A stretch of DNA of 64,000 nucleotides from NCBI GenBank assembly GCA_019326865.1, contig GCA_019326865.1_4101.1; one strand, given 5' to 3'. Positions 10,261-63,941 of the stretch are shown here, one piece after another. Both the position numbers and the translations under genes were made by a program. Position 1 is the first letter of the stretch. Every line of letters begins with the position of its first letter. Below the pieces are notes generated by a model. That model was not told where the DNA came from and did not search any database. It worked only from the letters and a program-made list of their open reading frames with translations. The DNA is from a phage.

Positions 10261-10533
10261 ATGTCTAGTAAATCCAATAAAAAGAATCTACTTGATAGTA
10301 TAGTTGACTATACCCCAGAGAAAGATACGTTACAGAGTTTTAGTAATCGTGCAGATCATGCAATAAACTCTGTGATACATTTATTGGAGAGCATTGAAGA
10401 TGAATTTAACCAAACTGATGCTGAAGATTTGAAAAAGCGTTTATTTCTAAGTATAAAAAACCGAGATTATAAAAAGTTTCAAAAAGGGTTAGAGAACATA
10501 GCACTTGATGAAAAACGTAATAAGGGTAATTAA
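10261..10533 (+). CDS. hypothetical protein
   Basis: 90-aa ORF immediately after helicase stop. Confidence 0.45.
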   Translation: MSSKSNKKNLLDSIVDYTPEKDTLQSFSNRADHAINSVIHLLESIEDEFNQTDAEDLKKRLFLSIKNRDYKKFQKGLENIALDEKRNKGN

Positions 10534-10534
10534 T

Positions 10535-10699
10535 ATGAAGAAAAAGAATATTAAAGAGAATGCATCCACAGCATCTACTTCGGCAGGTGCAATTGCATCT
10601 GTCAGTACTGGTTTACATTATCCATTACATCGTAGATTGCCTCCAACTAACTTCTTTGGGTATAAAATAGTAGATATAAAAGATAAGGATAAAGAATGA
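10535..10699 (+). CDS. hypothetical small protein
   Basis: Short ORF; ATG at 10535 chosen over overlapping 10505. Confidence 0.3.
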   Translation: MKKKNIKENASTASTSAGAIASVSTGLHYPLHRRLPPTNFFGYKIVDIKDKDKE

Positions 10700-11088
10700 A
10701 ACCATATACTTTCTACACGATACATACTGTAGTAGATATTGGTGACGGTAAAACTCCAACAATCATAGATTCAAAATTCACTGGTGCTATGAACTTGTCT
10801 AGGTTGTTGGAAGCAATTATGGTATATGATTATCCTATGATGGTAAGTGTTGTTAAAAATGAAGTTGATTTATATAAAGATAATAATTCATCTTTTTATA
10901 ATATACCAATTTCATGGGGTAAATGTACAATAAGCACATTTAAATTCGCTATACCAATGGACGTCGAACTTCGATTACATGGTATTCCATTAGTTCTACC
11001 AACTGAACTAAATGGGAAACGAATAACTAAATTTATTACATCTGGTGATGATATCAACATTAGCATCAGTAAACAGACCTTTTCTTAA
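10696..11088 (+). CDS. hypothetical protein
   Basis: 130-aa ORF, start overlaps upstream stop. Confidence 0.5.
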   Translation: MKPYTFYTIHTVVDIGDGKTPTIIDSKFTGAMNLSRLLEAIMVYDYPMMVSVVKNEVDLYKDNNSSFYNIPISWGKCTISTFKFAIPMDVELRLHGIPLVLPTELNGKRITKFITSGDDINISISKQTFS

Positions 11089-11144
11089 TTGTGATAAATA
11101 TCATAAAGCAAGACAGAGGTCTTTTTTTATTTTATGGAGAAAAT

Positions 11145-12089
11145 ATGGATATAAATCAAACAGCAACCGAACTTCAAAAGTTCGCAGACGCACATAATTT
11201 GAATGTTGATGTTTCTGTCATTCTTGATAATATGGATGCAGGTGATTTCATTACTTTAAATTCTGCGATTGATAATTCTGATAATCGTGAAATATTTCAA
11301 ATTTTGCAAAAATATAAAGCACAGATGAGTGAGTGTTATGAATATTTCAGTTCTAATAATTTAAATAAACATATCAATGAAAGTACTGAGCTACATAGCA
11401 TTGTTGATGCAATGACTCTAACACAACTGGAAGAGACATACACTAAAAAATATACTTATTCTGAAACATCAAAGCTAACGACCCAAGAATTAAAAGCGAT
11501 TGTATTTGAAGATTTTCAAAATCAAGCAACCCAAATGCAATCTAAACAAATTGCTAAAATGAATGTTTCCCAAGGTCAACAACAAGTTAATCCACAAACT
11601 CAAGCTAAAATGAAACAGGCTGAGTTACAAAGGAACGCTAATAATATGAAAGTTAGTGTTCCTGGAACACAAAGCGGTACGGATTCAGTAGAGCCTGTTG
11701 TTGGTGTAGATCCAGGTCAAACACCTGAGCAAACATTGGTAATTACTAAAAGCGGTACTAAACCAAATGAGTTAAATGTTTTCCCATTGAATGATGTGAA
11801 TCCAATCGATAGCCAAAATAATCCAATACGCGAGGAAAAATCTCCACAGGAAATTAACAGTGAATTAATGGGAGATGCAAGTTTAGAGCCTGATAGTAAT
11901 CCTGATTCACCATCACCATTATCACATCATGCACCAGGTATGGGTGAAATGATTCATGCTATTTCTGATATTGAAAAGGAAGATGATATTTACGGTGACG
12001 AAAGTGTAATGGCAAATCAGTCTCAATCGGATAATGATGATATGGTAGATCAAATTATTGATTATTGTCATCGTATGCGAGGTCGTTAA
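11145..12089 (+). CDS. hypothetical acidic Q-rich protein
   Basis: Start at 11145 after GGAGA RBS; Q/N-rich, acidic C-terminus. Confidence 0.5.
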   Translation: MDINQTATELQKFADAHNLNVDVSVILDNMDAGDFITLNSAIDNSDNREIFQILQKYKAQMSECYEYFSSNNLNKHINESTELHSIVDAMTLTQLEETYTKKYTYSETSKLTTQELKAIVFEDFQNQATQMQSKQIAKMNVSQGQQQVNPQTQAKMKQAELQRNANNMKVSVPGTQSGTDSVEPVVGVDPGQTPEQTLVITKSGTKPNELNVFPLNDVNPIDSQNNPIREEKSPQEINSELMGDASLEPDSNPDSPSPLSHHAPGMGEMIHAISDIEKEDDIYGDESVMANQSQSDNDDMVDQIIDYCHRMRGR

Positions 12090-12307: not shown

Positions 12308-12981
12308 ATTACGAATATGATCAACAATCAGTCAATCAGATGGCTGATTTGTTAAGTGGTCTTAATGATATTGAAGCTGGTGAGACACATGATGCGGCTG
12401 GTGTACCATATAAAGCTAGTGGTGATATTGGTGCAATGACTGCTATTTTAACTTCATTAAATGAAGCGGGTATGGATTATGGTATTGAACCTGAACAGAC
12501 ACATCCGAAGGTTGTGTCATATAACGCACCATTTAACGAACACATGAATGGACAACAACATGTTCAGCCTGTGATGCAACGTTCACCTTCTAAACCGAAA
12601 ACCAATTGGAGTTTAGTAGAAGAAAAGGTACAAGGCACGAAATCTACTAAAGTTTATAGTATTAAGTGTAACCATAGTTCACAAATTATCATGAATAATA
12701 TTATGATGTATGAAGCAGCACTTACTTTAGTTAACCTTCTTAACGAAGGGCGAATGTTGACAGATGCTAAAGTTCTTGGTATAATTAGTTCGGGTTTGCA
12801 ATACACAAATGTAATAAGCGAAGCATTAAAAGCAGCCCATAAACGCCAACGTGTACTTAATGAATCAAAGTATGATGAAGCAAAAGATTTAGATATAATC
12901 ATTGCAGAAAAGAAAGCAGAAGCGTATAAATTAAAAGAGCGTGTATTAAACTTTCTTAAAAATGAAGGGTACATCACTTGA
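12304..12981 (+). CDS. hypothetical protein
   Basis: 225-aa ORF. Confidence 0.5.
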   Translation: MNYEYDQQSVNQMADLLSGLNDIEAGETHDAAGVPYKASGDIGAMTAILTSLNEAGMDYGIEPEQTHPKVVSYNAPFNEHMNGQQHVQPVMQRSPSKPKTNWSLVEEKVQGTKSTKVYSIKCNHSSQIIMNNIMMYEAALTLVNLLNEGRMLTDAKVLGIISSGLQYTNVISEALKAAHKRQRVLNESKYDEAKDLDIIIAEKKAEAYKLKERVLNFLKNEGYIT

Positions 12982-15356: not shown

Positions 15357-15692
15357 ATGAGATTTAGTGATCTTACTGAAGAGGCTCCTGGTAAGGATAT
15401 ACGCAATATGATTACTACTATTGCGTTGTCTTTAATGTCAACGGGCCGAGAAGATGTAAATGTTCAATCTTTGATTTCAGAAATCAAAAAGAGAACTAAT
15501 ATTGATGTTCCATACAATGTAATGATGGATATTTTGAATTCCCTTCCTTTTGTACAGGATGCCAATTCCGATGTTGTAACTTTTGTTGGAAATTCAGAAG
15601 AAGGTTCAGGTGAATTAGAACAAGATTCTGAAGATCAAGTTGAAGATTGGGCAACAAAAGCTGCGGTGTCAGCAAATAAACAAAAAAACTGA
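15357..15692 (+). CDS. hypothetical protein
   Basis: 111-aa ORF, acidic. Confidence 0.5.
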   Translation: MRFSDLTEEAPGKDIRNMITTIALSLMSTGREDVNVQSLISEIKKRTNIDVPYNVMMDILNSLPFVQDANSDVVTFVGNSEEGSGELEQDSEDQVEDWATKAAVSANKQKN

Positions 15693-15708
15693 GACAAATA
15701 AAAATATA

Positions 15709-15717
15709 ATGCTATAA
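15709..15717 (+). promoter_or_regulatory. extended -10 promoter element (TGcTATAAT)
   Basis: TGcTATAAT just upstream of RBS and start at 15732. Confidence 0.4.
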
Positions 15718-15731
15718 TTAGGAGTACACGG

Positions 15732-16451
15732 ATGTACACACCACCAATTGTTAGCAGATATACATATGTTGGTTATAATAGAATTGAAGGCGGCCCCGAA
15801 GGTCGCCTTTATTCAACTCCAACGGGTAATCTGCCGTCAGTAACAACAATTCTAAGTGCGACCTCAAATGATGAGGGATTAAAGAAGTGGAGAGAATTTG
15901 TTGGTGAAGAAAAGGCTAATGAAATTACATTAGAAGCATGTACTGTTGGTACTTTTATGCATGAGAACTTAGAATTTAGATTAGAAGGTAAACCAGATCA
16001 TGAAGGTGGGATGCCAATCCGAGTTCTTGCACGTAGAATGGCTGATAAGATTCAGCAAGAGGCATGGCCTAGAATTAATGAAGTGTGGGGACAGGAAGTT
16101 CCATTATACTATGAAGGGTTATGGGCTGGAACTACAGACCTAGTGGGTGTTCATGATGGAATTCCCACCATTATGGATTATAAAAATTCTCGCAAGGTTA
16201 AGAATTGGGCACAAATTGAAAATTATCGTATGCAGATTGCAGCGTATGCATTAGCACATAATCAAATGTTTGGGACGAATATTGAACGTGGTGTGATTTT
16301 CATCTGTGTAAGAAAAGATCCTAATAATCTACAATATCAAGAGTTTGTTATTGAAGGACAAGACTTCAAGGATGCTGTTAATATGTGGATTGAGCGTGTT
16401 GAGCAATACTATATTTTGCGTGGAGAAATTGAATCAAATGGAGCAGCATAA
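15732..16451 (+). CDS. PD-(D/E)XK family nuclease (RecB/Cas4-like)
   Basis: Motifs GTTDLVGV and IMDYKNSRK fit D...D/E-x-K; 239 aa. Confidence 0.55.
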   Translation: MYTPPIVSRYTYVGYNRIEGGPEGRLYSTPTGNLPSVTTILSATSNDEGLKKWREFVGEEKANEITLEACTVGTFMHENLEFRLEGKPDHEGGMPIRVLARRMADKIQQEAWPRINEVWGQEVPLYYEGLWAGTTDLVGVHDGIPTIMDYKNSRKVKNWAQIENYRMQIAAYALAHNQMFGTNIERGVIFICVRKDPNNLQYQEFVIEGQDFKDAVNMWIERVEQYYILRGEIESNGAA

Positions 16452-28476: not shown

Positions 28477-28671
28477 ATGGCAGACAAAACATTTTATGAT
28501 CGTATTATTGAAGACAAGGGAGTTTTTGATAAGGTGGTTTATGACTTAGAACTTATGATCAAAGACGCACCAAATCCACGAGTACGAACACAAGCAGAAT
28601 TTGCAAAAACTTATCTTGTTCAAGTTCAAGCAATCTGTGAAGCAATTAAAAAACACAATGATAGAACTTGA
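28477..28671 (+). CDS. hypothetical small protein
   Basis: 64-aa ORF; its 3' end overlaps a consensus promoter. Confidence 0.45.
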   Translation: MADKTFYDRIIEDKGVFDKVVYDLELMIKDAPNPRVRTQAEFAKTYLVQVQAICEAIKKHNDRT

Positions 28672-28696
28672 CAGAACCAACGTTCTATCCTATAAT
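28668..28696 (+). promoter_or_regulatory. sigma70-type promoter (TTGACA-17-TATAAT)
   Basis: Perfect -35 and -10 hexamers with 17-nt spacer, 45 nt upstream of IF3-like start. Confidence 0.65.
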
Positions 28697-40665: not shown

Positions 40666-41619
40666 ATGACCACACTTTGGACTGAAAAATATCGCCCACA
40701 ATCAATGGAAGATTATGTATCAAAAAATGATGCCCTACGCCAGAAAATGGAAGAATGGATTAAAACTGGTGATATTCCACATATTGGTTTTTTTGGCCCA
40801 GCCGGAACTGGTAAAACATCTGCAATTAAAGTTCTTATTAATGGGTTAGTTCAAAATGGACACTTAGACCCAAGTGATGTAACAACACTTAATATGTCAG
40901 ATGAAGGTATTGATGCTGTACGTGATAAAATCGATGCAGCAGCTAAACTATCATGTTTTGGTAGATATCGTATTTTTGTTCTTGAAGAAATGGAGCAGAT
41001 GAATCATAAAGCACAAGGTAGCTTGAAACGTGTAATGGAGGATTATCATGAAAATGCTCGCTTTATTTTAACAAGTAATGAACCACATAAAATTCAAAAG
41101 CCTATCATTTCCCGTGTTCAAGTCATCACTATTGAAAAGCATGACATGGAACAGTTCATGACTAGAATTTACAATATCCTTCTCGCCGAAGGTGTTGACC
41201 TGAGTAGTGATGATAGTGTTGAACAAGTTCAAAAGTACATTAATGCTTCTTATCCTGATTTTCGTAAAACGTTAAACGTATTGCAAAGCTCTGTAGTTGA
41301 TGGTAAACTAGTAAAACTAGAAGATAGTATTGAAAATTCAGCGGGATACCGCACTGCAATCATTGATGCATTGAAGGCGGGAAATATTCGTCAAATGCGA
41401 GAACAGATTGTTCAATCTATTCCTGATGATGAAATGGATGCATTTTTCTCTTACTTATACAGAAATGCTGAAATGTTCAGTACTGATGAAATTACTCTTA
41501 TGAAAATCAAGGTTAAGATTCGTGATGCTGTTGTAAAACAAGCAACTGTATCTGACCGTGAAATGAATCTCAGTGCATTACTGTGTGAAATTGACCTAAT
41601 TTGTTCGGGGAACATGTAA
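40666..41619 (+). CDS. clamp loader ATPase (RFC/gp44-like)
   Basis: Walker A FFGPAGTGKTS, Walker B-like FVLEEMEQM, SRVQ sensor motif; 317 aa. Confidence 0.75.
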   Translation: MTTLWTEKYRPQSMEDYVSKNDALRQKMEEWIKTGDIPHIGFFGPAGTGKTSAIKVLINGLVQNGHLDPSDVTTLNMSDEGIDAVRDKIDAAAKLSCFGRYRIFVLEEMEQMNHKAQGSLKRVMEDYHENARFILTSNEPHKIQKPIISRVQVITIEKHDMEQFMTRIYNILLAEGVDLSSDDSVEQVQKYINASYPDFRKTLNVLQSSVVDGKLVKLEDSIENSAGYRTAIIDALKAGNIRQMREQIVQSIPDDEMDAFFSYLYRNAEMFSTDEITLMKIKVKIRDAVVKQATVSDREMNLSALLCEIDLICSGNM

Positions 41620-46861: not shown

Positions 46862-46890
46862 TTGACATATGAGTGCGTTTTTAATATAAT
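46862..46890 (+). promoter_or_regulatory. sigma70-type promoter (TTGACA-17-TATAAT) inside terminator hairpin
   Basis: -35 at 46862-46867 and -10 at 46885-46890, lying within the stem-loop at 46871-46913. Confidence 0.55.
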
Positions 46891-52722: not shown

Positions 52723-52913
52723 ATACTGAACTTTATGAAAAAAAGTACTGTACAAATTGTTCAACTGAGTATACAATACAAGGTATGTTAATTTGTACAA
52801 TATGTCAGTCAAAGAAATCAGCCACGTTTATCGTTGATGATAGATTTGGTGACTTAAAACAGTTTAAAGCAAACCGCAATCTTCGTATTTTTAGCAATCT
52901 AAATAAGGAATAA
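52719..52913 (+). CDS. hypothetical zinc-ribbon protein
   Basis: CTNC ... CTIC cysteine pairs; 64 aa. Confidence 0.4.
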   Translation: MNTELYEKKYCTNCSTEYTIQGMLICTICQSKKSATFIVDDRFGDLKQFKANRNLRIFSNLNKE

Positions 52914-52916
52914 TAT

Positions 52917-53345
52917 ATGAATATCGAACAAACTATCCGTAATCATTCTTTCTTCGCACCAGAAACTGGACGTGTTATCGAGAATATCAAAATCGAAGAA
53001 CTCATGATTAATGTTAAATACAAAGAACTAAATGATGAGATTAGCAGCACCATTTGTGCTTTACGTGCACCATTTCGTGACGAAAAAGCCAAAAAACCAG
53101 CATATGTTCTTGCAATTGCACTAGGGTGTGTCGTTAAACTGGCAGTTGATGAAAATATTATCAACATCAAAGTCGCCCCATCTAATGACGAAGAGAACAT
53201 TGATTTGAACTTCGATGGTAATCTTGATGAAGATGTATTTTTCCAACAATCACTTGTTTATGATTTCCGCACAGTTACACATTCTCATATCAACTTCGTC
53301 AATGAAATGGTTGATATTGTAGCAAAATATGAAGAATCACTATAA
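52917..53345 (+). CDS. FQxS-motif paralog family member
   Basis: C-terminal DEDVFFQQSLVYDF shared with nine other ORFs. Confidence 0.55.
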   Translation: MNIEQTIRNHSFFAPETGRVIENIKIEELMINVKYKELNDEISSTICALRAPFRDEKAKKPAYVLAIALGCVVKLAVDENIINIKVAPSNDEENIDLNFDGNLDEDVFFQQSLVYDFRTVTHSHINFVNEMVDIVAKYEESL

Positions 53346-53354
53346 GTAAATACA

Positions 53355-53380
53355 AAAGCCTCCACTATGGGGGCTTTTCT
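53355..53380 (+). terminator. rho-independent terminator
   Basis: agcctcc...gggggct hairpin then TTTT. Confidence 0.6.
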
Positions 53381-53399
53381 CACATAAGGTAATGAAGAC

Positions 53400-53951
53400 A
53401 TGATTGAACAAATTAAAATTCTCACAAAGCAAATTACCGATTTTCTTTCAGATAAAGATGGTTTTAAAACAGAAGTAAAAATGCACGGTGTTAGTCTTGA
53501 TGTTATTTCTCCTGATTCTAATGTGACAAATTATGATATGTATGAATTATTCCTTTACACGTTAGCAGTACGTAAGTTAGGAAGTGATATTGAACTTAAT
53601 ATTAATACTAATAGCGAAGGAAATAAAATTTTTGCAATCAACACGAGTGCCAAATTTGATATTAATGCAGAAATTAAAAAAATCAATGAAAGTTTTGTTG
53701 GCTTTAAACATAATTCTATTCAAGGTGTTTTTGTAGGAAAACAAACTTCCTCAAGTCAATACCCATACTGCATTATGACTTTATACAAAAATGGCGATTG
53801 GATGCGACAAGATTTAGTTTATGCTGAATTGTTGTATGCGTTTACACATGATCTTGTAATTGAATTGGACGACAGTGCTTTTTGCTTTAAGAAAATCAAA
53901 AAATTAACCAATGACATTCAAACACAACTTAAAGATTTAAATGATAAATAA
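53400..53951 (+). CDS. hypothetical protein
   Basis: 183-aa ORF. Confidence 0.5.
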   Translation: MIEQIKILTKQITDFLSDKDGFKTEVKMHGVSLDVISPDSNVTNYDMYELFLYTLAVRKLGSDIELNINTNSEGNKIFAINTSAKFDINAEIKKINESFVGFKHNSIQGVFVGKQTSSSQYPYCIMTLYKNGDWMRQDLVYAELLYAFTHDLVIELDDSAFCFKKIKKLTNDIQTQLKDLNDK

Positions 53952-54010
53952 ATATACCAGAAATGGTTAACATATCATGTTACTTTCATCCCTTACATAA
54001 TAATTATGCG

Positions 54011-54056
54011 TTATTATATTTTTCATTATTATATTTTTCATTATATTATTATTTTC
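54011..54056 (+). repeat. 15-nt tandem direct repeat in intergenic region
   Basis: ttattatatttttca twice in tandem (54011-54040) plus a partial third copy. Confidence 0.6.
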
Positions 54057-54085
54057 TTTTTATTGTACATAATCATATTAGTACT

Positions 54086-54107
54086 GCCCCGTTTTTCGGG
54101 GCATTTT
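54086..54107 (+). terminator. rho-independent terminator
   Basis: ccccg-ttttt-cgggg hairpin then TTTTT. Confidence 0.65.
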
Positions 54108-54129
54108 TATTATCTAAAATTGAGGATAT

Positions 54130-54525
54130 ATGAATAATAACATTGGAACTTCAATAATTAACCCACTTTCTTATTACCTTGAGAAATTTAGAAGTACAAA
54201 TGGTAAGAAATTTAATAATATATTTCAGTTTTCTCATAAAGAATATATTACTATTGATCATTTTTCAAAGAAACTAATGTATGTAAATGATAATAATCAT
54301 ATTATTAAATTATCATTTGATATTGAATTAGATAAATTGACATTTACTGAATATATTAATAATAAAACTTCGTTTTTAAGCACATACAATAGAAAAGTAT
54401 ATAGGAACATTTCAATGTACCTAAATGACGAATATTACTTTCAACAATCTACCATAGAAGATGTATTATTCAGTACAGAAGAATTAAAAGAATTATATTA
54501 TTGGTATGAGCAATTTATCTATTGA
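54130..54525 (+). CDS. FQxS-motif paralog family member
   Basis: C-terminal DEYYFQQSTIEDV. Confidence 0.55.
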   Translation: MNNNIGTSIINPLSYYLEKFRSTNGKKFNNIFQFSHKEYITIDHFSKKLMYVNDNNHIIKLSFDIELDKLTFTEYINNKTSFLSTYNRKVYRNISMYLNDEYYFQQSTIEDVLFSTEELKELYYWYEQFIY

Positions 54526-54577
54526 CATTGTGGTTCGATTCTTCTACAATACAAGATAATACGTTGAGGAAAAATGA

Positions 54578-54988
54578 ATGAGTTTAGATTTACACAATGA
54601 ACTAAAATATTTTTTAGATTTGGATATATCCAATTTGAGCCAACACGTCAATTATATAACTAGTACTGTGTGGTGGTCTAATGAACAAGATGACCCAATT
54701 ATACAACTAAGTGATAATTCATCAGTTATGCGATTTTATAAGATTAATTATAAAAATAACATCAAGATCACATATATACCATACAAAAACATACTAATAG
54801 CCGAAACACTTAATCCAAGCTCTTTATTAAAAATCACCGATATAGATACATTACAAACAAATGAATCATTATTTCAACGTTCATTGGTTGATGATCTTGG
54901 TGGTATTACTTTTGAAGATATATTACAATTGAAGAATATGTATAGCGAATTGTTAGAGATTAAAAACACTTTAGTAATGGGGGATTGA
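54578..54988 (+). CDS. FQxS-motif paralog family member
   Basis: C-terminal NESLFQRSLVDDLG. Confidence 0.55.
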   Translation: MSLDLHNELKYFLDLDISNLSQHVNYITSTVWWSNEQDDPIIQLSDNSSVMRFYKINYKNNIKITYIPYKNILIAETLNPSSLLKITDIDTLQTNESLFQRSLVDDLGGITFEDILQLKNMYSELLEIKNTLVMGD

Positions 54989-54989
54989 T

Positions 54990-55388
54990 ATGGTAAGTTT
55001 ACTAGATATTGATAATACCAGTTTAGTGTTGGTGAAAAAAGGTTTAATCCCCAATTCTACAAAAATTGATTATGCTGTTATTGAAACAAATATGGGAAAT
55101 ATTTGGTATGATTCCGAAAGGGATATTGTGATTAGCTGCGTAGACAGTGACCGTGCTGAGTGTTGTAGAGTCGGTCATGACGGACAATTTGTTTTTGAAT
55201 TTCGTTATTGGAAGGACGCAAAATTTCACCAAGAACTTGTTGCTTTGTCAAATGAACTATATACAGAAGAAACTTTCTTTATGGAAAGTACTATTAATGA
55301 TCTTGGTTCAGTAACGTATGAGCACTATAAAAAAGTATACACACTATCCAGAGAAGTTATGAAAATTATCAGAACTGCTGAAAGTTGA
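54990..55388 (+). CDS. FQxS-motif paralog family member
   Basis: C-terminal EETFFMESTINDLG. Confidence 0.55.
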   Translation: MVSLLDIDNTSLVLVKKGLIPNSTKIDYAVIETNMGNIWYDSERDIVISCVDSDRAECCRVGHDGQFVFEFRYWKDAKFHQELVALSNELYTEETFFMESTINDLGSVTYEHYKKVYTLSREVMKIIRTAES

Positions 55389-55395
55389 GAATAAC

Positions 55396-55785
55396 ATGAC
55401 TACTATATATGATATTTTAGATAACTTGAATAAAAATATTGATAAAAATTTAGTTATCGTCGCTAATACTAGATGTATAATTCATCTTCCAGATATAAAT
55501 TATATTCCAACGGATACAACTGATAGATTAATTATTAATACATATTTACAATCATTAACATATCTCTATAATGGGATGGTGATATGGGTTTTTGATATAA
55601 AAGAAAATACAATACGATATGTATATGACTTTAACGATTATTGGTCAAGAACCCATAACATTGATATTGAGGAAGATGAACTGTTTCAATTGTCGTTAAT
55701 CGAGAAAAATGTAATAGGAGTTACCGAAATTGGCATTGTTAAAAAAGCATTGGAATATGCAAATAGTAAATTAAATGGTGAATAA
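55396..55785 (+). CDS. FQxS-motif paralog family member
   Basis: C-terminal EDELFQLSLIEKNV. Confidence 0.55.
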   Translation: MTTIYDILDNLNKNIDKNLVIVANTRCIIHLPDINYIPTDTTDRLIINTYLQSLTYLYNGMVIWVFDIKENTIRYVYDFNDYWSRTHNIDIEEDELFQLSLIEKNVIGVTEIGIVKKALEYANSKLNGE

Positions 55786-55787
55786 AC

Positions 55788-56234
55788 ATGGATGTTGATA
55801 AAATAGCAAATCATTTTGAAATTGCATTATCTTGTAATTTTGATACCAAAAGCGTAGAATCACCTAAAGAGTATATACATATTAGCTGTTCTTATTCACA
55901 TTCATGTATAGTCCATATTGAAAAGACCTATGACCGTACTGAGTTATCGTTTTACAACCCACTCATCAGAACAACATCAGTTATGTTAATATATAATACA
56001 ATATCTGACATTATTGAAATTATTTCAAATTATACTGATGTAACTTGTACAACTATATATAATGCAAGTACATGCATAACAGAAGAAGGATATTTCCAGG
56101 AGTCACTTATTCAAAATTTTAATTATGATTATAAAGATTTATGTTATATAGTCTTAAGTTTTGAAAAAATAAACGAAATGGTTTTGTCATTATTTGACAT
56201 AATCGAACAAAATCCAAAGGTAATCAAATGCTAA
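55788..56234 (+). CDS. FQxS-motif paralog family member
   Basis: C-terminal EEGYFQESLIQNF. Confidence 0.55.
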   Translation: MDVDKIANHFEIALSCNFDTKSVESPKEYIHISCSYSHSCIVHIEKTYDRTELSFYNPLIRTTSVMLIYNTISDIIEIISNYTDVTCTTIYNASTCITEEGYFQESLIQNFNYDYKDLCYIVLSFEKINEMVLSLFDIIEQNPKVIKC

Positions 56235-56668
56235 ATCCAATAAAGTTTTTTAATTTATTAGGTATTACATCTATACCGGATTTAACAAGTGAAACAAACG
56301 TATATCGTGATGTTGGAAATGTATCATTGGAATATGATACATTTGACTTTAAATGTTACATAACATATAACATTGAATCCTATACTAAAAAATCATCATA
56401 CATTTTTGTGTTCATATATAATGATTATAGTGGTAATACACTGAATGATGTTCATATTGACACATTTGAAATATGTGGTAATATTATATCAGATGAATCA
56501 TCATCTACATTTGATTTGGAATTAAACAGTACTGAAGAGTCACTTTTTCAGTTGAGTACTATAAGTGACACTATATTAACACCAGATGACATTGAGAAAT
56601 TTAAAGAACATCTTGACGCAGTTCGTGAGATGTTCTATAATCATTATCCAGAAGTGGAGTTCAAATAA
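56228..56668 (+). CDS. FQxS-motif paralog family member
   Basis: C-terminal EESLFQLSTISDT. Confidence 0.55.
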   Translation: MLNPIKFFNLLGITSIPDLTSETNVYRDVGNVSLEYDTFDFKCYITYNIESYTKKSSYIFVFIYNDYSGNTLNDVHIDTFEICGNIISDESSSTFDLELNSTEESLFQLSTISDTILTPDDIEKFKEHLDAVREMFYNHYPEVEFK

Positions 56669-56682
56669 CTAAAGGTAATAAG

Positions 56683-56943
56683 ATGACTAAAGTAGTTCGT
56701 AGACGCCATATGATGAACATGGATGAATTTCGCACATTTGACAAATATCGTACTATGTTTCGTATGCTTTCACAGGGCCGCCCAATTGTCATTGTAACAG
56801 AGAATTACATGTCACCTGAGATTATGTTTGGTAATTATGAAAAGGTCTTCATGCTGTACGTGAAGCGTGGATTACTTACAATCAAGACATTAGCTGAAGC
56901 AACTGATGAAGATATGGATGGTGATAATACCTTTACCATGTGA
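56683..56943 (+). CDS. hypothetical protein
   Basis: 86-aa ORF. Confidence 0.45.
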   Translation: MTKVVRRRHMMNMDEFRTFDKYRTMFRMLSQGRPIVIVTENYMSPEIMFGNYEKVFMLYVKRGLLTIKTLAEATDEDMDGDNTFTM

Positions 56944-57021
56944 GGAAATATATGTCTGAAAAACCAAAAGAACCTTTAGATCGTGATGATGATTTTTATG
57001 ACGAACGATATGGAGATGATA

Positions 57022-57273
57022 ATGAGTGAACATAGTGCGGTGCTTAAAAAGATTTTAAAGGAAATTGATGGTGAGTTTAATGTCACAGAAGAAGAATATC
57101 AGCATTGGAAGAAAGATTTCGAACAACTAACCGAGTATGATAAAGTGTTCAATATGATTGGTGTAATTAGCCAGTACTTACTTGGTGGAGGACGTGCAAG
57201 TGCTTCAATTCTGGCATCTGCAATCATCTGCACATCACGATGGTGTGATGAAAAAAGTTTGGAAGATTTCTAA
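57022..57273 (+). CDS. hypothetical protein
   Basis: Start at 57022 after GGAGA RBS; a 25-aa upstream ORF (56952..57029) with its own RBS overlaps by ATGAGTGA. Confidence 0.45.
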   Translation: MSEHSAVLKKILKEIDGEFNVTEEEYQHWKKDFEQLTEYDKVFNMIGVISQYLLGGGRASASILASAIICTSRWCDEKSLEDF

Positions 57274-57289
57274 ATAAGATGCTATAATA

Positions 57290-57298
57290 TATTATAGT
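57290..57298 (+). promoter_or_regulatory. extended -10 promoter element (TGcTATAAT)
   Basis: About 28 nt upstream of methyltransferase start. Confidence 0.4.
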
Positions 57299-57325
57299 AC
57301 CTTAACAATATAAAAAGGATTTTAT

Positions 57326-59221
57326 ATGAAACCTATCCGAGTACTATCTCTTTTTAATGGGATGAGTGTAGGATACATGGCATTAAAAGATGCTGGTATC
57401 CCTGTTGAAAAATATTATTCATCCGAAATTGACAAATTTGCTATAGCTGAATCCCAAGCTAACTTCCCCGATATCATCCAATTGGGTGATGTAACTAGAT
57501 GGAAAGAATGGGATATCGAATGGGACAAGATAGATCTACTGATGGGTGGTTTTCCATGCTTCCCAGCAGGAACTATGATAATGACAAATAAAGGTCATAA
57601 AGATATAAAAGATATAAAAATTGGTGATATGGTTCTTACACACACTGGACAGTACCAAAAAGTATTGAGTACTTGTGTAAAACAAGCACCAACTAGAATT
57701 ATATCAGGTCAGGGCCATTTACCTATTGAATGTACCGATAATCACCCATTTTATTCGAGAGTTTTGGGTAAAAAATGGAATAATGCCAAACGTCAATATG
57801 ATAGAATAGCAAGCGATGCAGAATGGGTATATGCATCAGAATTAACACCAAATCATTTACTATGTAATGTAAAATCATCGTATGTTCGTGAATCATCATT
57901 GAGAGATGAAAAATTTTGGTATTTTATGGGTAGATTTGCAGGAGATGGGTGGGTATCAAAAGTTAAACGTCAAAAAAGAAAAAATAGTTATGTATATAAA
58001 GTGTTAATGTGTTGTGCACATGATGAATTTGATGAATTGGTTGAATGTTTTGATGGTTTAAAAATGAATTATAATTATACCAAAGAACGCACTTCATATA
58101 AATTTTATATTACATCAAAAACTTTACTTGAATTCTGTGAAAAGATGGGGAAAGGTGCTTCTAATAAAATTGTTCATCCTGAATTATGGTCCGAATGTGT
58201 AGAAAATAAAAAAGCTTTTCTTGAAGGGTACATATCGGCTGACGGTCATTACTATGATGGTAAATGGCACATTACATCAACATCATCAAACATGATATTG
58301 GGTATACAGCAATTAGTCATGGACATTTATGGAAGGCATGTGAATATACATAAAGTCACACCGTCACCCACTAAGATTATTGAGGGACGTATAGTAAATC
58401 AAAAACCGTGGTACAGAATAGAATTCACTGAAAATCCACTAAAACATGAAAATGCTTTTTATGATGATGATACGTATGCTTGGGTAAACGGTGTCAAAAA
58501 AAGTATACCTACAAATGAAATAAAAGACGTATATTCATTTGAAGTTGCAGTAGATAACACATATACGGCGAACAATATTGTAGTTCATAACTGTCAAGCG
58601 TGGTCAGTTGCTGGGAAACAAGGCGGTGTGAATGACCCTCGTGGTATGTTATTCCATACAATGGTTGATATTTACCAGCACATAAAAAGTCTCAATCCAG
58701 ACTTGAAAGTACTGTTCGAGAATGTTAAAATGAAAGAAGATTTCAAGCAATACATTAATAGTGTTCTTGAGATGACACCAGTACTGATAAATTCCCAGCA
58801 TTATACGCCTCACTTCAGGCAGAGATATTACTGGTACAGTACTGATAAACTTTTTATACCACCTGCATTATCCAATGCACCTAAACTTCAAGATATTATT
58901 GAAGATGGTTGGTACACTGACAGAACCGCTTCGTACTGTATAGATGCTAACTATTTTAAGGGTGGTGATTGTAACCAGTACTTTAATAAATCAAGAAGAC
59001 AAATTGTTTTCAAAGAACCTGATATCGATAGGGATTTCCTTCTTGAACATGGTAAGCGAAATGTGGACTATCGTCATTTAACAGTACAAGAGTGTTGCAT
59101 GTTGCAAGGAATTGATGTAAACTACTTCAAAGTTAGTAGTTCAACACAAGCATACAAAATGCTTGGGAATGGATGGACTATGCCAGTTATATCACACTTA
59201 CTACGAGATATATTCTTTTGA
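57326..59221 (+). CDS. DNA (cytosine-5)-methyltransferase interrupted by an in-frame intein
   Basis: N-extein: motif I LFNGMSVG, E-x-D, GGFP; C-extein: CQAWSVAGK (completes motif IV), ENV, QRYYW, MLGNGWTMPVISHL. Exteins total about 286 aa. Confidence 0.75.
   Translation: MKPIRVLSLFNGMSVGYMALKDAGIPVEKYYSSEIDKFAIAESQANFPDIIQLGDVTRWKEWDIEWDKIDLLMGGFPCFPAGTMIMTNKGHKDIKDIKIGDMVLTHTGQYQKVLSTCVKQAPTRIISGQGHLPIECTDNHPFYSRVLGKKWNNAKRQYDRIASDAEWVYASELTPNHLLCNVKSSYVRESSLRDEKFWYFMGRFAGDGWVSKVKRQKRKNSYVYKVLMCCAHDEFDELVECFDGLKMNYNYTKERTSYKFYITSKTLLEFCEKMGKGASNKIVHPELWSECVENKKAFLEGYISADGHYYDGKWHITSTSSNMILGIQQLVMDIYGRHVNIHKVTPSPTKIIEGRIVNQKPWYRIEFTENPLKHENAFYDDDTYAWVNGVKKSIPTNEIKDVYSFEVAVDNTYTANNIVVHNCQAWSVAGKQGGVNDPRGMLFHTMVDIYQHIKSLNPDLKVLFENVKMKEDFKQYINSVLEMTPVLINSQHYTPHFRQRYYWYSTDKLFIPPALSNAPKLQDIIEDGWYTDRTASYCIDANYFKGGDCNQYFNKSRRQIVFKEPDIDRDFLLEHGKRNVDYRHLTVQECCMLQGIDVNYFKVSSSTQAYKMLGNGWTMPVISHLLRDIFF
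57557..58591 (+). mobile_element. intein with LAGLIDADG homing-endonuclease domain (345 aa)
   Basis: Starts CFPAGTMIM, block B TDNHPF, two LAGLIDADG-like motifs (FMGRFAGDGWV, FLEGYISADGHY), ends NNIVVHN before +1 Cys. Confidence 0.7.
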
Positions 59222-59703
59222 ACATAAACAAACACCAAACTTATATAAAACGTGCAGAAAGTTTCAAACGGCTGGCTGTAAAATCTGAATTAGAATTTAA
59301 TTTGTATTATCCTAATATTGGTGATGAGGTATTTTATTGCTCTCATTCAAAGAATGGAACTTTACTTAAATCGGGTAAAGGAACTATTGTTGATATGACC
59401 GCAAATTTCAGAGGTAAACTTAATGTAATGTACAAAGTACAAGATTCAAGAACTGAGTGTATTCATGAAGTGATGCATAACATACCTGCATATCCAAAAG
59501 ATTTTGTTCAGCTAATATCTCGAAGGGAGAAACCTATGTTCTATTGTGGTTACGACAAATTAACCAAACAAATTATTCCTAATACTATGGGAAAATTTAA
59601 AAGTGATGTAAAATCTGAACTAGAAAAGAAATTTGGTACATCATGGGAAACTGAAAACGAGTTTATCGAAATTCGTTTAATTGAAGTTACTATTCTTGAT
59701 TAA
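59173..59703 (+). CDS. hypothetical protein
   Basis: 176-aa ORF overlapping methyltransferase 3' end; start uncertain. Confidence 0.4.
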   Translation: MDYASYITLTTRYILLNINKHQTYIKRAESFKRLAVKSELEFNLYYPNIGDEVFYCSHSKNGTLLKSGKGTIVDMTANFRGKLNVMYKVQDSRTECIHEVMHNIPAYPKDFVQLISRREKPMFYCGYDKLTKQIIPNTMGKFKSDVKSELEKKFGTSWETENEFIEIRLIEVTILD

Positions 59704-59708
59704 TTATA

Positions 59709-59731
59709 AATCCACGCAATGCGTGGATTTT
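59709..59731 (+). terminator. rho-independent terminator
   Basis: atccacgc-aat-gcgtggat hairpin then TTTTT. Confidence 0.75.
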
Positions 59732-59745
59732 TCATAGGTGTATAT

Positions 59746-60261
59746 ATGTCAATTCCTTATGTTAAAATTATTAACAATATTCTTGATTCTTGGGAAGATG
59801 TCATTATTGGCAAAAAGAAACCTTTTCCTGTTCATGCACTAACTGGAAGACTACAATTCAGAATGTCAAACAAAACTGAAACGTTTAATAATCATGATAT
59901 TTGTATTACATTAAAAACACCTGTTAGTATTGTAATTAAAAAAAATAAAGATGATGAATTGTCATTATCTATTGGTCGTGATAAAATCATTTTAAGTAAT
60001 TTGTCTGAAGAAGAATTCTTTCAAAGAAGTACTATCATCGACATGAAAGATTTCACATATGAATCATTAGTAGAACTCAATACACGTTTTGATGATATTC
60101 AGGAACGATTGCGACCAATCCTCCGTAGAGAAGAAGAAGCCTGGATTGAAAGTATGAAGAAGATGCAAGAAATGTTAAAAGAAACTATTAACAATATGGG
60201 TCAATCTATTTTGGACATTGGTAAAACTTTTAAACTCAACTTTTCAAAGGAACGTAAATGA
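59746..60261 (+). CDS. FQxS-motif paralog family member
   Basis: Start at 59746 after AGGTG RBS; motif EEEFFQRSTIIDM. Confidence 0.55.
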   Translation: MSIPYVKIINNILDSWEDVIIGKKKPFPVHALTGRLQFRMSNKTETFNNHDICITLKTPVSIVIKKNKDDELSLSIGRDKIILSNLSEEEFFQRSTIIDMKDFTYESLVELNTRFDDIQERLRPILRREEEAWIESMKKMQEMLKETINNMGQSILDIGKTFKLNFSKERK

Positions 60262-60710
60262 AAATCGATGAACTGATTTATATTTTAGGTAACTTGCATA
60301 AAATATTGTTACATCTCCAAGAGATAAAGAACCTTGGGTATAGCATGTCCAATACTAATAAAACCGCATTTGAATACAACCCAACCACGGGTGGAAATTA
60401 TAATATTGTGTATTGTTATGAAACTGACCCAGACTGCTATCAACTTACGTTATACTTTTATCCAACAAACCCTACCATTGTTCAAGACATATCATCAATA
60501 TCACTTGACCCAGATGGTGAAATGAGTATAGAATATAGCTATGATTCTAAAAAAGAATGTTACGTTGAAGATATGAAAAATATGTTTAACGACGAATATG
60601 TGTTCCAGCTAAGTACTGTACATGATGTTGGAAGTACTAATGGACAATTTTGGAATACATGTTATTATCATATGATTGAAATTTGTAAATTACTAAAAGG
60701 CGATGATTAA
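60258..60710 (+). CDS. FQxS-motif paralog family member
   Basis: C-terminal DEYVFQLSTVHDVG. Confidence 0.55.
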   Translation: MKIDELIYILGNLHKILLHLQEIKNLGYSMSNTNKTAFEYNPTTGGNYNIVYCYETDPDCYQLTLYFYPTNPTIVQDISSISLDPDGEMSIEYSYDSKKECYVEDMKNMFNDEYVFQLSTVHDVGSTNGQFWNTCYYHMIEICKLLKGDD

Positions 60711-61093
60711 TGAAATACAGCATTGAAGTACATTACACTACTGGTGATACTGAAAATCAATATAACATAGTTAAGACCATTGATGTTCAATGGGATACTA
60801 AAGAGGAAGCAGTTGCTGCTTTACAGTGCCTAAAAGAGCATTGGGTGTTTTATATGAAGCAAGATAATTGCTATACAAAAGAACACGAAACTATCGTTAA
60901 AAATGCTAAACAAAAAGAGTGGTTTGACCCAATTTCACCAGAATATTCATTTTTGGTTAAAGTTGGCGGTGTGACAGTTCCCTTACGTACACCGTGGAAC
61001 GGCTACTTTGAAACTCTTCATAATGCACGAGTTGTCGCTGTTGATAATCCTGAACAAATCGATTTCGATTCATTGGACTGGAAAAAACTATGA
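60710..61093 (+). CDS. hypothetical protein
   Basis: 127-aa ORF between family members. Confidence 0.5.
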   Translation: MKYSIEVHYTTGDTENQYNIVKTIDVQWDTKEEAVAALQCLKEHWVFYMKQDNCYTKEHETIVKNAKQKEWFDPISPEYSFLVKVGGVTVPLRTPWNGYFETLHNARVVAVDNPEQIDFDSLDWKKL

Positions 61094-61533
61094 CAGTACT
61101 GCACCAATTGAAGAAGGTTAAGCATCCAGTTGTATATGAGGACTGGAAACGTCAGAAGCTGATGGGTGACTTTTATTACCCAAAATCTAAAGTTCTGGCA
61201 ACGTCAAAAGCTATATACTTGAAATATAAGGATGAAGATTGTTTGTGTATTCAAATGGGATTCCATCCTAAAGTTGGTTTGTTTAAATCAAATCAAACAT
61301 TTTATAAATTTAGAATTCAAAAAGATACATTTAGTATTCATATCGAAAAGCCTGATGTACAAGATACAATTTATCGTGTGGAAAGTCAGCCTTTGAATCT
61401 TGTTGAGATTCCGTACAATAATTTAGAAGAAATGTACTTTCAGCAGTTGACAATACAAGAAGACTTTGGTATGATAGGACTTCAAGAGTTAGAGATGATT
61501 AAACAAATTCGTGATATCTACTTTAAGGAGTAA
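61090..61533 (+). CDS. FQxS-motif paralog family member (divergent)
   Basis: C-terminal EEMYFQQLTIQEDFG. Confidence 0.5.
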   Translation: MTVLHQLKKVKHPVVYEDWKRQKLMGDFYYPKSKVLATSKAIYLKYKDEDCLCIQMGFHPKVGLFKSNQTFYKFRIQKDTFSIHIEKPDVQDTIYRVESQPLNLVEIPYNNLEEMYFQQLTIQEDFGMIGLQELEMIKQIRDIYFKE

Positions 61534-61535
61534 CT

Positions 61536-61679
61536 ATGCCAGTACGTAACAGTACTTCACGCTTTACGCTTCAACAGAAAGCAGATCTTTTGAATATGGC
61601 AAACAAAGATTCTAATTTTCACTATCTAGTGCTCGGTGGGTCAGTAGAAAAGATTGACCTACGTGAGTGTATGAAATAA
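61536..61679 (+). CDS. small hypothetical protein (47 aa)
   Basis: Not in ORF track; AAGGAG RBS 5 nt upstream of ATG. Confidence 0.4.
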   Translation: MPVRNSTSRFTLQQKADLLNMANKDSNFHYLVLGGSVEKIDLRECMK

Positions 61680-62003: not shown

Positions 62004-62032
62004 TTGACACATGAAAATGGAGTATGTATAAT
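62004..62032 (+). promoter_or_regulatory. sigma70-type promoter (TTGACA-17-TATAAT)
   Basis: Consensus hexamers, 17-nt spacer, about 30 nt upstream of start at 62065. Confidence 0.6.
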
Positions 62033-62064: not shown

Positions 62065-62637
62065 ATGGCGGGTGTTGATAAAATTTGTGAATTCAGTTCA
62101 GATTATGAAGGGTACGAAATGTATAAGTCCAAGCGTAATCACATTCAAGTACTGTCAAAATACCGAAAACATTTTAGAGGGCACAAAGCAACCCTGTATA
62201 TTTTTGAAAACGGATTGAAAGAGGTATGGAAGTCGGGTGCGTTATCTGATGCAACGATGGAATGTGTAAATCCAAACCCAACTGAAGAGAACTGGAATAA
62301 CCACGAATATTTCCGTGTTGCCACACGTACACCTTGGGGTAAAAAGGAATGCTTTGGTGTATTCTTTGATAACATTAATGAATACAAAGCTGCATTAAAA
62401 CAATATCACCAGCGTTTACTAATGAATTATGATTACATTCTTCATGTACCAACTGTTCCAGGACAGGTTAATGGTATCTATACGAACAGTACGCATGATT
62501 TAACTGCGGTGAAACGTCGCCTCAAACGTATGTTGGGTAGTGGTAATTTAACAATCAAGGTTATGCGTAATGAATCAATGTATAACTTTTTAAATATCCT
62601 ACACTACACATTAAAGGATAATAATGGAAACGATTAA
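62065..62637 (+). CDS. hypothetical protein
   Basis: 190 aa, GAGGA RBS. Confidence 0.5.
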   Translation: MAGVDKICEFSSDYEGYEMYKSKRNHIQVLSKYRKHFRGHKATLYIFENGLKEVWKSGALSDATMECVNPNPTEENWNNHEYFRVATRTPWGKKECFGVFFDNINEYKAALKQYHQRLLMNYDYILHVPTVPGQVNGIYTNSTHDLTAVKRRLKRMLGSGNLTIKVMRNESMYNFLNILHYTLKDNNGND

Positions 62638-63654: not shown

Positions 63655-63941
63655 AAATTTTAGAAGTCTTGCTAGAAAAAGATGCATCTGGCACACTTTA
63701 TGTTGGTAATGAGTTCAGTCCAGATCCAATTGATATGTTACAGAGAATCCAAATACTGACACAAAACATCTCGGTTAAAAAACCGTTTCAGAAAGAATTG
63801 GAAATCTTTTGCAATAAAGATATTGAACAGCATGATAATGTGATTGCTGATATTAAAAGTCTATTGACAAAAAATGGTTATGTAGAGTATAATCCTCCTA
63901 TTGTAATCGTTATTCCAGACTTCATGAAAGGAACAATCTAA
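63651..63941 (+). CDS. hypothetical protein
   Basis: 96-aa ORF, start overlaps upstream stop. Confidence 0.45.
   Translation: MKILEVLLEKDASGTLYVGNEFSPDPIDMLQRIQILTQNISVKKPFQKELEIFCNKDIEQHDNVIADIKSLLTKNGYVEYNPPIVIVIPDFMKGTI

Follow-up and report, generated by a model that had tools for sequence, protein, structure and literature searches.

An array of paralogous small genes in Rak2-like jumbo phages shares one predicted fold and a conserved C-proximal motif

Introduction

Hyperplastic loci of the T4 type, for example the internal-protein (IP) locus, consist of small divergent genes that share only a short capsid-targeting sequence. The host-takeover module of phage SPO1 and the anti-CRISPR and other anti-defence clusters encode small, often acidic, non-structural proteins in tight early operons with fast turnover and mosaic distribution. 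Here, we describe an array of ten small genes that recalls both kinds of locus. It lies in a stretch of 64,000 nucleotides (nt) of phage DNA (GenBank assembly GCA_019326865.1, contig GCA_019326865.1_4101.1), referred to below as the window, and centers on a run of six genes at positions 54130-56668. Like the T4-type IP locus, it combines small divergent genes in tandem, a single short block in common, variable content, allele exchange and a presumed role against host defence. Unlike in that locus, the common block is C-proximal, predicted to be helical and part of the fold rather than a cleaved N-terminal leader; the two are unrelated in sequence, and the family proteins were not detected in virions of phage phAPEC6. 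With the SPO1-type and anti-defence clusters the array shares small, often acidic, non-structural proteins from tightly packed, probably early operons, as well as fast turnover and a mosaic distribution. Those clusters, however, usually hold unrelated proteins, whereas the 10-17 members per genome found here derive from one scaffold and their orthologues are kept across genera.

Rak2-like jumbo phages (121Q, PBECO4, phAPEC6, RaK2, GAP32, CBB) are studied as therapeutic and as model phages, and more than 80% of their genes are without an assigned function. Genome papers on this clade report the same broad phenomenon, the occurrence of paralogues, in general terms (RaK2, PMC3622015; CBB, PMC5259590). 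For CBB, 22 ORFs (open reading frames) with BLASTP-detectable paralogues were listed (CBB_47-50, 147-149, 160-161, 438-439, 480-482, 536-543, 549-553 and 356/10; PMC5259590). The present family appears to be missing from this list, judging by the numbering, which would place it just after CBB_370 (equivalent to RaK2 ORF182). In the literature, we found no paper that names its motif, fold or function. The family has thus been undescribed until now, and it is of a familiar kind, that of lineage-specific accessory gene arrays in large phages.

Results

Ten genes form one superfamily

A reading of the window from its letters alone (the sequence-only reading) had proposed that six consecutive ORFs of 129-148 amino acids (aa) are paralogues with a common C-terminal motif and that further copies at 52917, 59746, 60258 and 61090 bring the family to about ten. 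Coordinates and lengths of the six plus-strand ORFs proved correct, the four further copies are present, and exactly ten plus-strand ORFs of the window carry the motif; more family ORFs follow beyond the window end in phage 121Q. Pairwise phmmer comparison among the ten members gave a best E-value of 8e-5, which is too weak to stand as sole proof of paralogy. Because pairwise similarity was marginal, the syntenic loci of relatives were gathered for profile methods, namely those of UE-S1, 121Q, phAPEC6, A4, Turkey5, JNE01 and Klebsiella phage RaK2. Escherichia phage CMSTMSU (MH494197.1, UNVERIFIED_ORG) was excluded from the alignments. Its syntenic region is broken into many short ORFs with family members split or truncated, which points to sequencing frameshifts.

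An iterative hidden Markov model (HMM) run on all plus-strand ORFs of the window and the seven loci needed three rounds to converge and recovered 78 ORFs. Those of the window were the ten motif ORFs and no others, at E-values between 9e-10 and 7.5e-29. The 78 ORFs sort into 11 syntenic orthogroups with multiple members each and a few groups that are small or hold a single ORF; several orthogroups contain a RaK2 orthologue at 20-30% identity. Profile comparison of orthogroup against orthogroup reached probabilities of up to 97%, and some pairs aligned over 94-123 columns, that is over the whole protein and not the motif alone. When each orthogroup was left out in turn and compared by hhalign, nine of the window orthogroups scored 95.2-97.3% and the 61090 group 77.7%, while 11 neighbouring non-family orthogroups scored at most 1.2%. 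On the same score (at most 1.2%), motif-less neighbours (53400-53951, 56683-56943, 56983-57273, 59173-59703, 60710-61093, 62065-62637 and others) were rejected as degenerate members. The proposed paralogy is borne out by both the HMM, which recovers exactly these copies, and the leave-one-out profiles, which separate family from neighbours. Hence we conclude that the ten ORFs are genuine paralogues belonging to one ancient superfamily with one fold.

All members are encoded on the plus strand; percentages in this paragraph are leave-one-out hhalign probabilities unless stated otherwise. The first, 52917-53345 (142 aa; motif DEDVFFQQSLVYD at aa 105-117; 97.0%), belongs to orthogroup 3 and has a RaK2 orthologue. 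The six-gene run opens with 54130-54525 (131 aa; NDEYYFQQSTIED; 95.6%) of orthogroup 9, missing in RaK2 and Turkey5, and its guanine-plus-cytosine (GC) content of 21.5% is the family minimum. The most central member is 54578-54988 of orthogroup 1 (136 aa; TNESLFQRSLVDD; 97.3% over 119 columns), the protein modelled by AlphaFold. It is followed by 54990-55388 (132 aa; TEETFFMESTIND; 97.3%), with M for Q in the motif across the whole orthogroup, by 55396-55785 (129 aa; EEDELFQLSLIEK; 95.2%), a cassette-like allele, and by 55788-56234 (148 aa; TEEGYFQESLIQN; 96.4%). The start of the last gene of the run, 56228-56668 (146 aa; TEESLFQLSTISD; 97.1%), overlaps the preceding gene by 7 nt, and its product is the most acidic member (isoelectric point, pI, 4.19; net charge -17). 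Farther downstream, 59746-60261 (171 aa; SEEEFFQRSTIID; 95.6%) carries a K/E-rich C-terminal extension of ~45 aa. The 59746 start is backed by a ribosome-binding site (RBS), AGGTG, whereas the alternative 59719 start of the mechanically called ORF has none; the protein is basic, with a pI of 8.6 as calculated for the longer 59719 ORF. The start of 60258-60710 (150 aa; NDEYVFQLSTVHD; 95.5% over 113 columns) overlaps the preceding stop codon (ATGA). The most divergent member is 61090-61533 (147 aa; LEEMYFQQLTIQED; 77.7%), with L for S in the motif. Family proteins are small (about 115-175 aa) and mostly acidic and are devoid of signal peptides and membrane segments. Eight of the ten have a pI of 4.2-4.8 and a net charge of -8 to -17, and the other two have pI values of 7.7 and 8.6; across all members net charge ranges from -17 to +2. 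The median pI of window ORFs of at least 90 aa is 5.4.

A conserved motif within a shared predicted fold

In all ten members an acidic pair precedes the sequence [FYLVM]-F-[QM]-x-[SL]-[TL]-[IV]. The motif starts 29-47 residues before the C-terminus, or 81 residues before it in the 59746 protein with its C-terminal extension. The shared motif of the sequence-only reading is therefore real but looser than proposed: the F is preceded by F, Y, L or V, Q is M in the 54990 protein, S is L in the 61090 protein, and two copies have N or K instead of the trailing D. Searched against 346 ORFs of at least 40 aa on both strands, the regular expression found the ten members and one 40-aa minus-strand ORF without the acidic prefix. 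With that prefix required, ten of the 346 ORFs matched, against a mean of 0.034 and a maximum of 1 in 2000 composition-preserving shuffles.

Over about 97 effective sequences, conservation is 100% for F, 94% for S, 88% and 82% for the two E and 87% for Q. The phenylalanine is the only invariant motif residue; one entire orthogroup has M for Q, and another has L for S. Family-wide, the conserved block reads [ST]-E-E-x-[FYL]-F-[QM]-x-S-[LT]-[IVL]-x-[DN]-[FL]-G and corresponds to the first helix and the turn of a C-terminal hairpin. Nearly all of the 78 cluster representatives found in the large-scale search described below carry the fuller version [ST]EEx[FY]FQxS[TL][IV]xD[FL]Gx[IV]x[FY]E[DH]. 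Outside the 15-residue block, where each protein is free to diverge, mean identity falls to 13-16%.

AlphaFold2 modelled the 54578-54988 product from 38 aligned sequences with a predicted local distance difference test (pLDDT) score of 86.3 and a predicted template-modelling (pTM) score of 0.81. The model consists of helices at residues 5-13 and 17-23, seven strands within residues 24-86, a helix at 95-102, a turn and a final helix at 112-134. The motif, here N-E-S-L-F-Q-R-S, forms helix 95-102 and is the part predicted with highest confidence (pLDDT 91-93). A Foldseek search of BFVD returned only uncharacterised proteins of Rak2-like phages (RaK2, GAP32, CBB and Yersinia phages fHe-Yen9-03/04), with TM-scores of 0.86 for the RaK2 orthologue and 0.63-0.67 for paralogues; these BFVD models predict the same fold independently. 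A second model, that of the 61090-61533 protein, reached a pLDDT of 69.9 and has the same order of elements and overlapping BFVD targets. Structure prediction, which had been named as a way of checking the family, thus returned a shared fold in two models (the second at this lower pLDDT) and in the BFVD paralogues. The common predicted fold comprises one or two N-terminal helices, an antiparallel beta-meander of about seven strands and a C-terminal helix-turn-helix that covers it. For comparison, the p32/gC1qBP/MAM33 fold (PDB 7te3_A) has a helix, seven antiparallel strands and C-terminal helices and assembles into a doughnut-shaped homotrimer; on the side of the present family the comparison involves monomer models.

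From the position of its residues in this fold, we infer that the motif serves the scaffold as its folding core. Its T and acidic pair lie at the N-terminus of the helix, where the T would act as N-cap, the aromatic residues would be buried, D-x-G falls on the turn as C-cap, and a second T/S-x-x-E box opens the last helix as its N-cap. The changes from Q to M and from S to L, polar to hydrophobic in whole orthogroups, fit burial and not catalysis.

The family is confined to Rak2-like jumbo phages of Enterobacterales

The region 52900-61600 matched 37 phage records in megablast searches, all of them ~350 kb jumbo myoviruses of Escherichia or Salmonella in the genus Asteriusvirus. Identity is highest to the closest relative, UE-S1 (94%), and amounts to ~87% for PBECO4, 121Q and phAPEC6. 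A prophage or E. coli chromosomal origin was rejected, as megablast found no match in 5,426 complete E. coli genomes. In the related phages a C5 DNA methyltransferase is the only gene of the region with an annotation other than 'hypothetical protein'.

An hmmsearch of 1.84 billion cluster representatives yielded 78 proteins (clusters at 50% identity; 62-176 aa) at E-values of 1e-3 or better. Every traceable member came from a ~350 kb jumbo phage of Enterobacterales or from a contig of such size, and the named hosts are Escherichia, Salmonella, Klebsiella, Cronobacter, Pectobacterium, Yersinia and Erwinia. This shows that the family is confined to Rak2-like jumbo phages of Enterobacterales. A homologue search with the family alignments was less sensitive: it returned 21-33 close relatives from three or four orthogroups and missed Klebsiella-phage orthologues that tblastn and the exhaustive hmmsearch found.

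Copy number amounts to 10 in the window, 14 within 12 kb in a metagenomic relative and 17 in 121Q. The metagenomic relative has the same synteny, with genes for a Pth2-type peptidyl-tRNA hydrolase and a DNA methylase interleaved. Past the position of the window end, 121Q has seven more ORFs recognized by the family HMM (genes 112, 128, 141, 142, 146, 147 and 148), which lie among eight tRNA genes; within the 69000-84000 locus their coordinates are 2038-2541, 5247-5600, 8987-9430, 9423-9788, 10498-10926, 10916-11344 and 11292-11747. The family locus of 121Q therefore spans about 22 kb, and our window cuts the locus. The window contains no tRNA gene.

Database searches gave no functional assignment. 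Pfam-A returned no match better than E 0.006, and the weak matches each concerned one member and a different family. In NCBIfam there was nothing but a match of one member to RimP (E 0.014), dismissed as a multiple-testing artefact. PADLOC-DB returned no match for any member, and a sequence search of the PDB produced nothing usable (best E 0.53). In PHROGs v4 each member matched one group over its full length with E-values between 1e-38 and 1e-106, all annotated 'unknown function'. These groups (33313, 24941, 24510, 36084, 30841, 30548, 23322, 38573, 21500 and 23719) are the same proteins in related Rak2-like phages. PHROGs keeps them as at least ten separate families with weak cross-matches (E 1e-3 to 5e-6) in the motif region only, and superfamily, fold and motif are unrecorded there.

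Old paralogues and exchanged alleles

Every paralogue is matched by a syntenic orthologue of its own throughout Asteriusvirus, and for several of them one exists in Klebsiella phage RaK2 too. The paralogues thus predate the split between Asteriusvirus and Alcyoneusvirus, and the array is old. Orthogroups have nevertheless been gained and lost; orthogroups 9 and 10, for instance, are missing in several phages. Between the window and 121Q, the ratio of nonsynonymous to synonymous substitution rates (dN/dS) was 0.09-0.44 (mean 0.24) for family genes and 0.02-0.31 (mean 0.15) for their neighbours, which indicates gene-wide purifying selection, somewhat relaxed in the family. GC content averages 29.1% in family genes versus 33.1% in the window. 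The six-gene run is the part of the window lowest in GC, with 21.5-33% per gene and 27.1% in the 2-kb bin 54001-56000.

Divergence is concentrated in single genes. Between phages that are 90-99% identical in the flanking genes, individual members of the family differ by 35-52% at the protein level. Compared with 121Q, the window falls from ~95% nucleotide identity to 56-69% over 55360-56560, which covers three family genes, and then returns to 96-98%. With UE-S1 the drop, to 69-78%, is limited to 55360-55760; the gene affected is 55396-55785, and its flanks are 92-100% identical. Synonymous divergence (dS) in the divergent family genes is 0.6-1.6, a raised value that points to imported divergent alleles instead of local bursts of amino-acid change. 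Within the genus, the allele classes of 55788-56234 are deeply divergent, at 94.6%, about 59% and 48% aa identity. For 54990-55388, the class represented by 121Q is closer than that of TH47 (91% versus 82-83%), whereas for the adjacent 55788-56234 the order is reversed (48% for the 121Q class versus 59% for the TH47 class). Such incongruent ordering of alleles in adjacent genes, together with the local divergence, argues for mosaic, cassette-like exchange.

The proposal that the family expanded under diversifying selection survives only in part. A population-level signal exists, as single genes carry divergent and mutually incongruent alleles. The expansion is, however, not recent, given the syntenic orthologues, and dN/dS stays at 0.09-0.44. 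Comparison across relatives, on which the proposal was to be judged, gave a copy number that indeed varies from 10 to 17 and a dN/dS that signals purifying selection.

Expression context and absence from the virion proteome

Upstream of the array, on the same strand of the window, are genes for ribonucleotide reductase, a Dda/PIF1-type helicase, both topoisomerase II subunits, a clamp loader (40666-41619), TelA and an exonuclease. The array hence forms the distal end of a replication and nucleotide-metabolism block. Over the whole window, sigma-70-like sites with at least 11 of 12 consensus positions number 22 on the coding strand and 1 on the opposite strand, with 2.5 expected from local shuffles. 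Five of the 22 are perfect TTGACA-N17/18-TATAAT sites; examples of plus-strand consensus matches are 12757-12785, 28668-28696, 46862-46890, 62004-62032 and 63864-63893. Within the array, a promoter-like site of the sigma-70 type (TTGACA-17-TACAAT, 11 of 12, plus strand) at 54522-54550 lies just upstream of the 54578 gene and is conserved in UE-S1 and 121Q. Turkey5 has a perfect TTGACA..TATAAT ahead of the orthologue of the same gene. This pattern suggests dense transcription of the whole block that would depend on host RNA polymerase. The middle promoter of CBB and GAP32 (TGAAACG...TATA) had zero matches in the window. The genes are tightly packed with several stop/start overlaps, and nine of the ten members have a purine-rich RBS; 61090 is without a clear one.

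The virion proteome of phAPEC6 comprises 62 proteins detected by mass spectrometry (PMC7247149, Table 1). The phAPEC6 orthologues of family members are gp134c, gp132c-127c, gp121c and gp120c, and none of them is among these 62 proteins.

The spacer and other neighbours of the array

The six-gene run is preceded by a spacer with 23% GC (53952-54129, plus strand), which comprises a conserved 5' segment, a tandem repeat, a terminator hairpin and the RBS GAGGA. The AT-rich spacer and the 15-nt tandem repeat noted in the sequence-only reading both exist. The repeat TTATTATATTTTTCA is present in 2.3 exact copies at 54011-54044 according to Tandem Repeats Finder (TRF), extendable to 54055 at 90%. By alignment, however, the extra copy is unique to the present isolate: UE-S1, 121Q, phAPEC6, A4 and Turkey5 have a single copy. 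With the duplication missing in all five relatives compared, a regulatory role of the tandem repeat was rejected. An intrinsic-terminator-like hairpin (TGCCCCG-TTTTT-CGGGGCA followed by a T-run; 54085-54113, plus strand) keeps its stem in all relatives compared and is annotated as a terminator in UE-S1.

The ~55 nt after the stop codon of 53400-53951 (53945-54000) are nearly invariant in six phages. They contain an inverted repeat, TAACAT-ATC-ATGTTA, at 53968-53982 and the sequence CCTCCCTTACATAATAAT, and could represent a phage-specific promoter or an RNA-processing site upstream of the terminator. A 56-aa ORF at 53963-54133 covers the AT-rich repeat and the terminator hairpin and translates into low-complexity sequence (LLYFSLLYFSLYYYFLFIV...). 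In 121Q the equivalent ORF is listed as gene 82, but UE-S1 and phAPEC6 carry no annotation for it; it is unlikely to be a gene.

The gene for the C5 cytosine DNA methyltransferase at 57326-59221 (631 aa) carries an intein, which has Hint and LAGLIDADG homing-endonuclease domains. In 121Q, phAPEC6 and Turkey5 the gene has 861 bp and is intein-free, while it measures about 1.9 kb in UE-S1, A4 and JNE01; from this difference in length the intein is polymorphic within the genus. A Pth2 gene lies inside the family array in RaK2 (ORF188, 15401-15814), A4 (A4_114, 15413-15823) and the metagenomic relative (10410-10829; all in locus coordinates). At the equivalent position, between 55388 and 55396, it is missing in the window, UE-S1 and 121Q.

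Discussion

By analogy with other phage systems, we tentatively favour the view that the family proteins are early cytoplasmic binders or inhibitors in host interaction, built on a common scaffold whose folding core is the motif, and that their genes are exchanged as cassettes; we put this forward as the leading candidate, at somewhat less than even confidence. The family genes would be transcribed early by host RNA polymerase, and their products would act in the cytoplasm and not in the virion. With its variable sheet and loops, each paralogue may bind its own target among host or competitor proteins and would probably inhibit or redirect it. Judging from their context, namely promoters of the sigma-70 type, non-detection in virions and small acidic products, the paralogues together could form an accessory arsenal for host takeover or counter-defence, from which related phages would trade single genes as allelic cassettes, driven by host-imposed pressure to diversify. 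Variable copy number and replacement of single-gene alleles speak for independent modules rather than an obligate complex.

Several points weigh against this proposal. Its functional part is drawn by analogy with other small early phage proteins. A dN/dS below 1 and syntenic retention from Escherichia phages to RaK2 would be just as compatible with conserved roles intrinsic to the phage. Helix capping usually demands less conservation than E-E, Q and S show, so that the block may contain a shared binding site. The first AlphaFold2 model came from a shallow alignment of 38 sequences, with the five models spanning pLDDT 63.8-86.3, and the second model (61090-61533) is of low confidence. The promoter and terminator calls are consensus matches only, and no transcriptome of any Rak2-like phage was found in the literature. 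Finally, absence from a single virion proteome may still allow low-copy packaging.

The main rival explanation, which we consider unlikely, is that the conserved helix-turn-helix (TEE-x-FFQ-x-S...D-x-G) is an exposed dock for one partner and that the variable sheet picks the cargo or target of such an adaptor. Candidate partners would be a host protease or chaperone, RNA polymerase, the sliding clamp or a conserved phage protein. Such a dock would account for the extreme conservation of the 15-residue block, including the polar E, E, Q, S and D, next to 13-16% identity elsewhere. The Q-x-S-[LT]-[IV] part also recalls the QL[SD]LF type of clamp-binding pentapeptide, and the clamp-loader gene is located upstream. 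Proteins that bind the sliding clamp carry their motif in a flexible, usually terminal peptide, whereas the family motif is predicted as helix 95-102 inside a folded domain with pLDDT 91-93. In addition, clamp motifs require an L at a position that half of the members fill with T, whole orthogroups have exchanged Q for M or S for L, and the sole invariant residue is phenylalanine. The helical, high-confidence placement of the motif makes a docking handle less likely, but the strong conservation of polar residues leaves it plausible.

Somewhat less probable, in our estimate, is a phage-intrinsic role as subunits of a hetero-oligomer or as a housekeeping set for replication or translation, in which coupled genes would supply the subunits stoichiometrically and the block would be the inter-subunit interface. 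Clade-wide retention of every paralogue as a distinct syntenic orthologue under purifying selection is in line with this idea, as are abutting or overlapping stop and start codons and the interleaving of Pth2, tRNA genes and DNA methylase with the array in relatives. Against it stand a membership that varies from 10 to 17 copies, with orthogroups 9 and 10 missing in several phages, and a net charge from -17 to +2. Replacement of single genes by alleles only 48-65% identical beside neighbours at ~90% or more is difficult to reconcile with co-evolving subunits.

The adaptor idea has a combinatorial variant, which strikes us as doubtful. The TEE-x-FFQ-x-S handle would plug all paralogues into one hub, for which a phage enzyme is a candidate besides the protease, chaperone, polymerase and clamp named above, and the hypervariable sheet would give each its own target among host or defence proteins. 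The closest likeness would be F-box or SOCS-box receptors: 10-17 interchangeable substrate receptors, swapped as cassettes, would retarget one machine.

More doubtful still is a function as DNA-mimic anti-restriction proteins of the Ocr, ArdA or Arn type, that is as acidic decoys that titrate host nucleases or DNA-binding defence proteins. The low pI and the net charge of -8 to -17 in eight of the ten members would suit such decoys, the array adjoins a C5 DNA methyltransferase, another anti-restriction device, and the promoter context suggests early expression. Against this, two members are neutral or basic (pI 7.7 and 8.6), and acidity is common in the window, where ORFs of at least 90 aa already have a median pI of 5.4.

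A set of internal proteins packaged into the virion or its inner body, with a targeting or protease-processing signal in common, would, as in the case of the T4 internal proteins, show the same pattern of a divergent paralogue array with one short common block, and the block superficially resembles protease sites of the E-x-x-Y-x-Q/S kind. The capsids of phAPEC6 do contain an inner body (PMC7247149). Yet the phAPEC6 orthologues (gp120c-134c) are not among the 62 detected virion proteins, the block is internal and helical rather than an N-terminal leader of the kind that the prohead protease removes, the N-termini are unconserved, and the genes lie in the early/replication block behind sigma-70-type promoters, far from the structural genes. 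This explanation is very improbable and effectively excluded. A chance or low-complexity resemblance among unrelated ORFs without a consistent domain, the outcome that would have undone the sequence-only reading, might be suspected from the weak pairwise phmmer scores, but its probability is negligible and it was refuted by the shuffles (ten motif ORFs versus 0.034 expected), by HMM convergence on exactly these ORFs, by leave-one-out profiles (95-97%, or 77.7% for the 61090 group, versus at most 1.2%) and by the shared predicted fold.

Our results merge at least ten separate PHROGs of unknown function into one superfamily with a defined fold and a diagnostic motif, accounting for 10-17 genes per genome or ~3% of the gene count. 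Likely early expression, absence from the virion and cassette-like allele exchange make these genes a priority for screens for host takeover and counter-defence, and for structural work the family offers a natural series of one scaffold with many surfaces. If the motif acts only as a folding core, the gain for Rak2-like phages would be a useful, ordinary improvement of annotation; if it proves to be a shared docking handle, the family would represent a new principle of phage target diversification.

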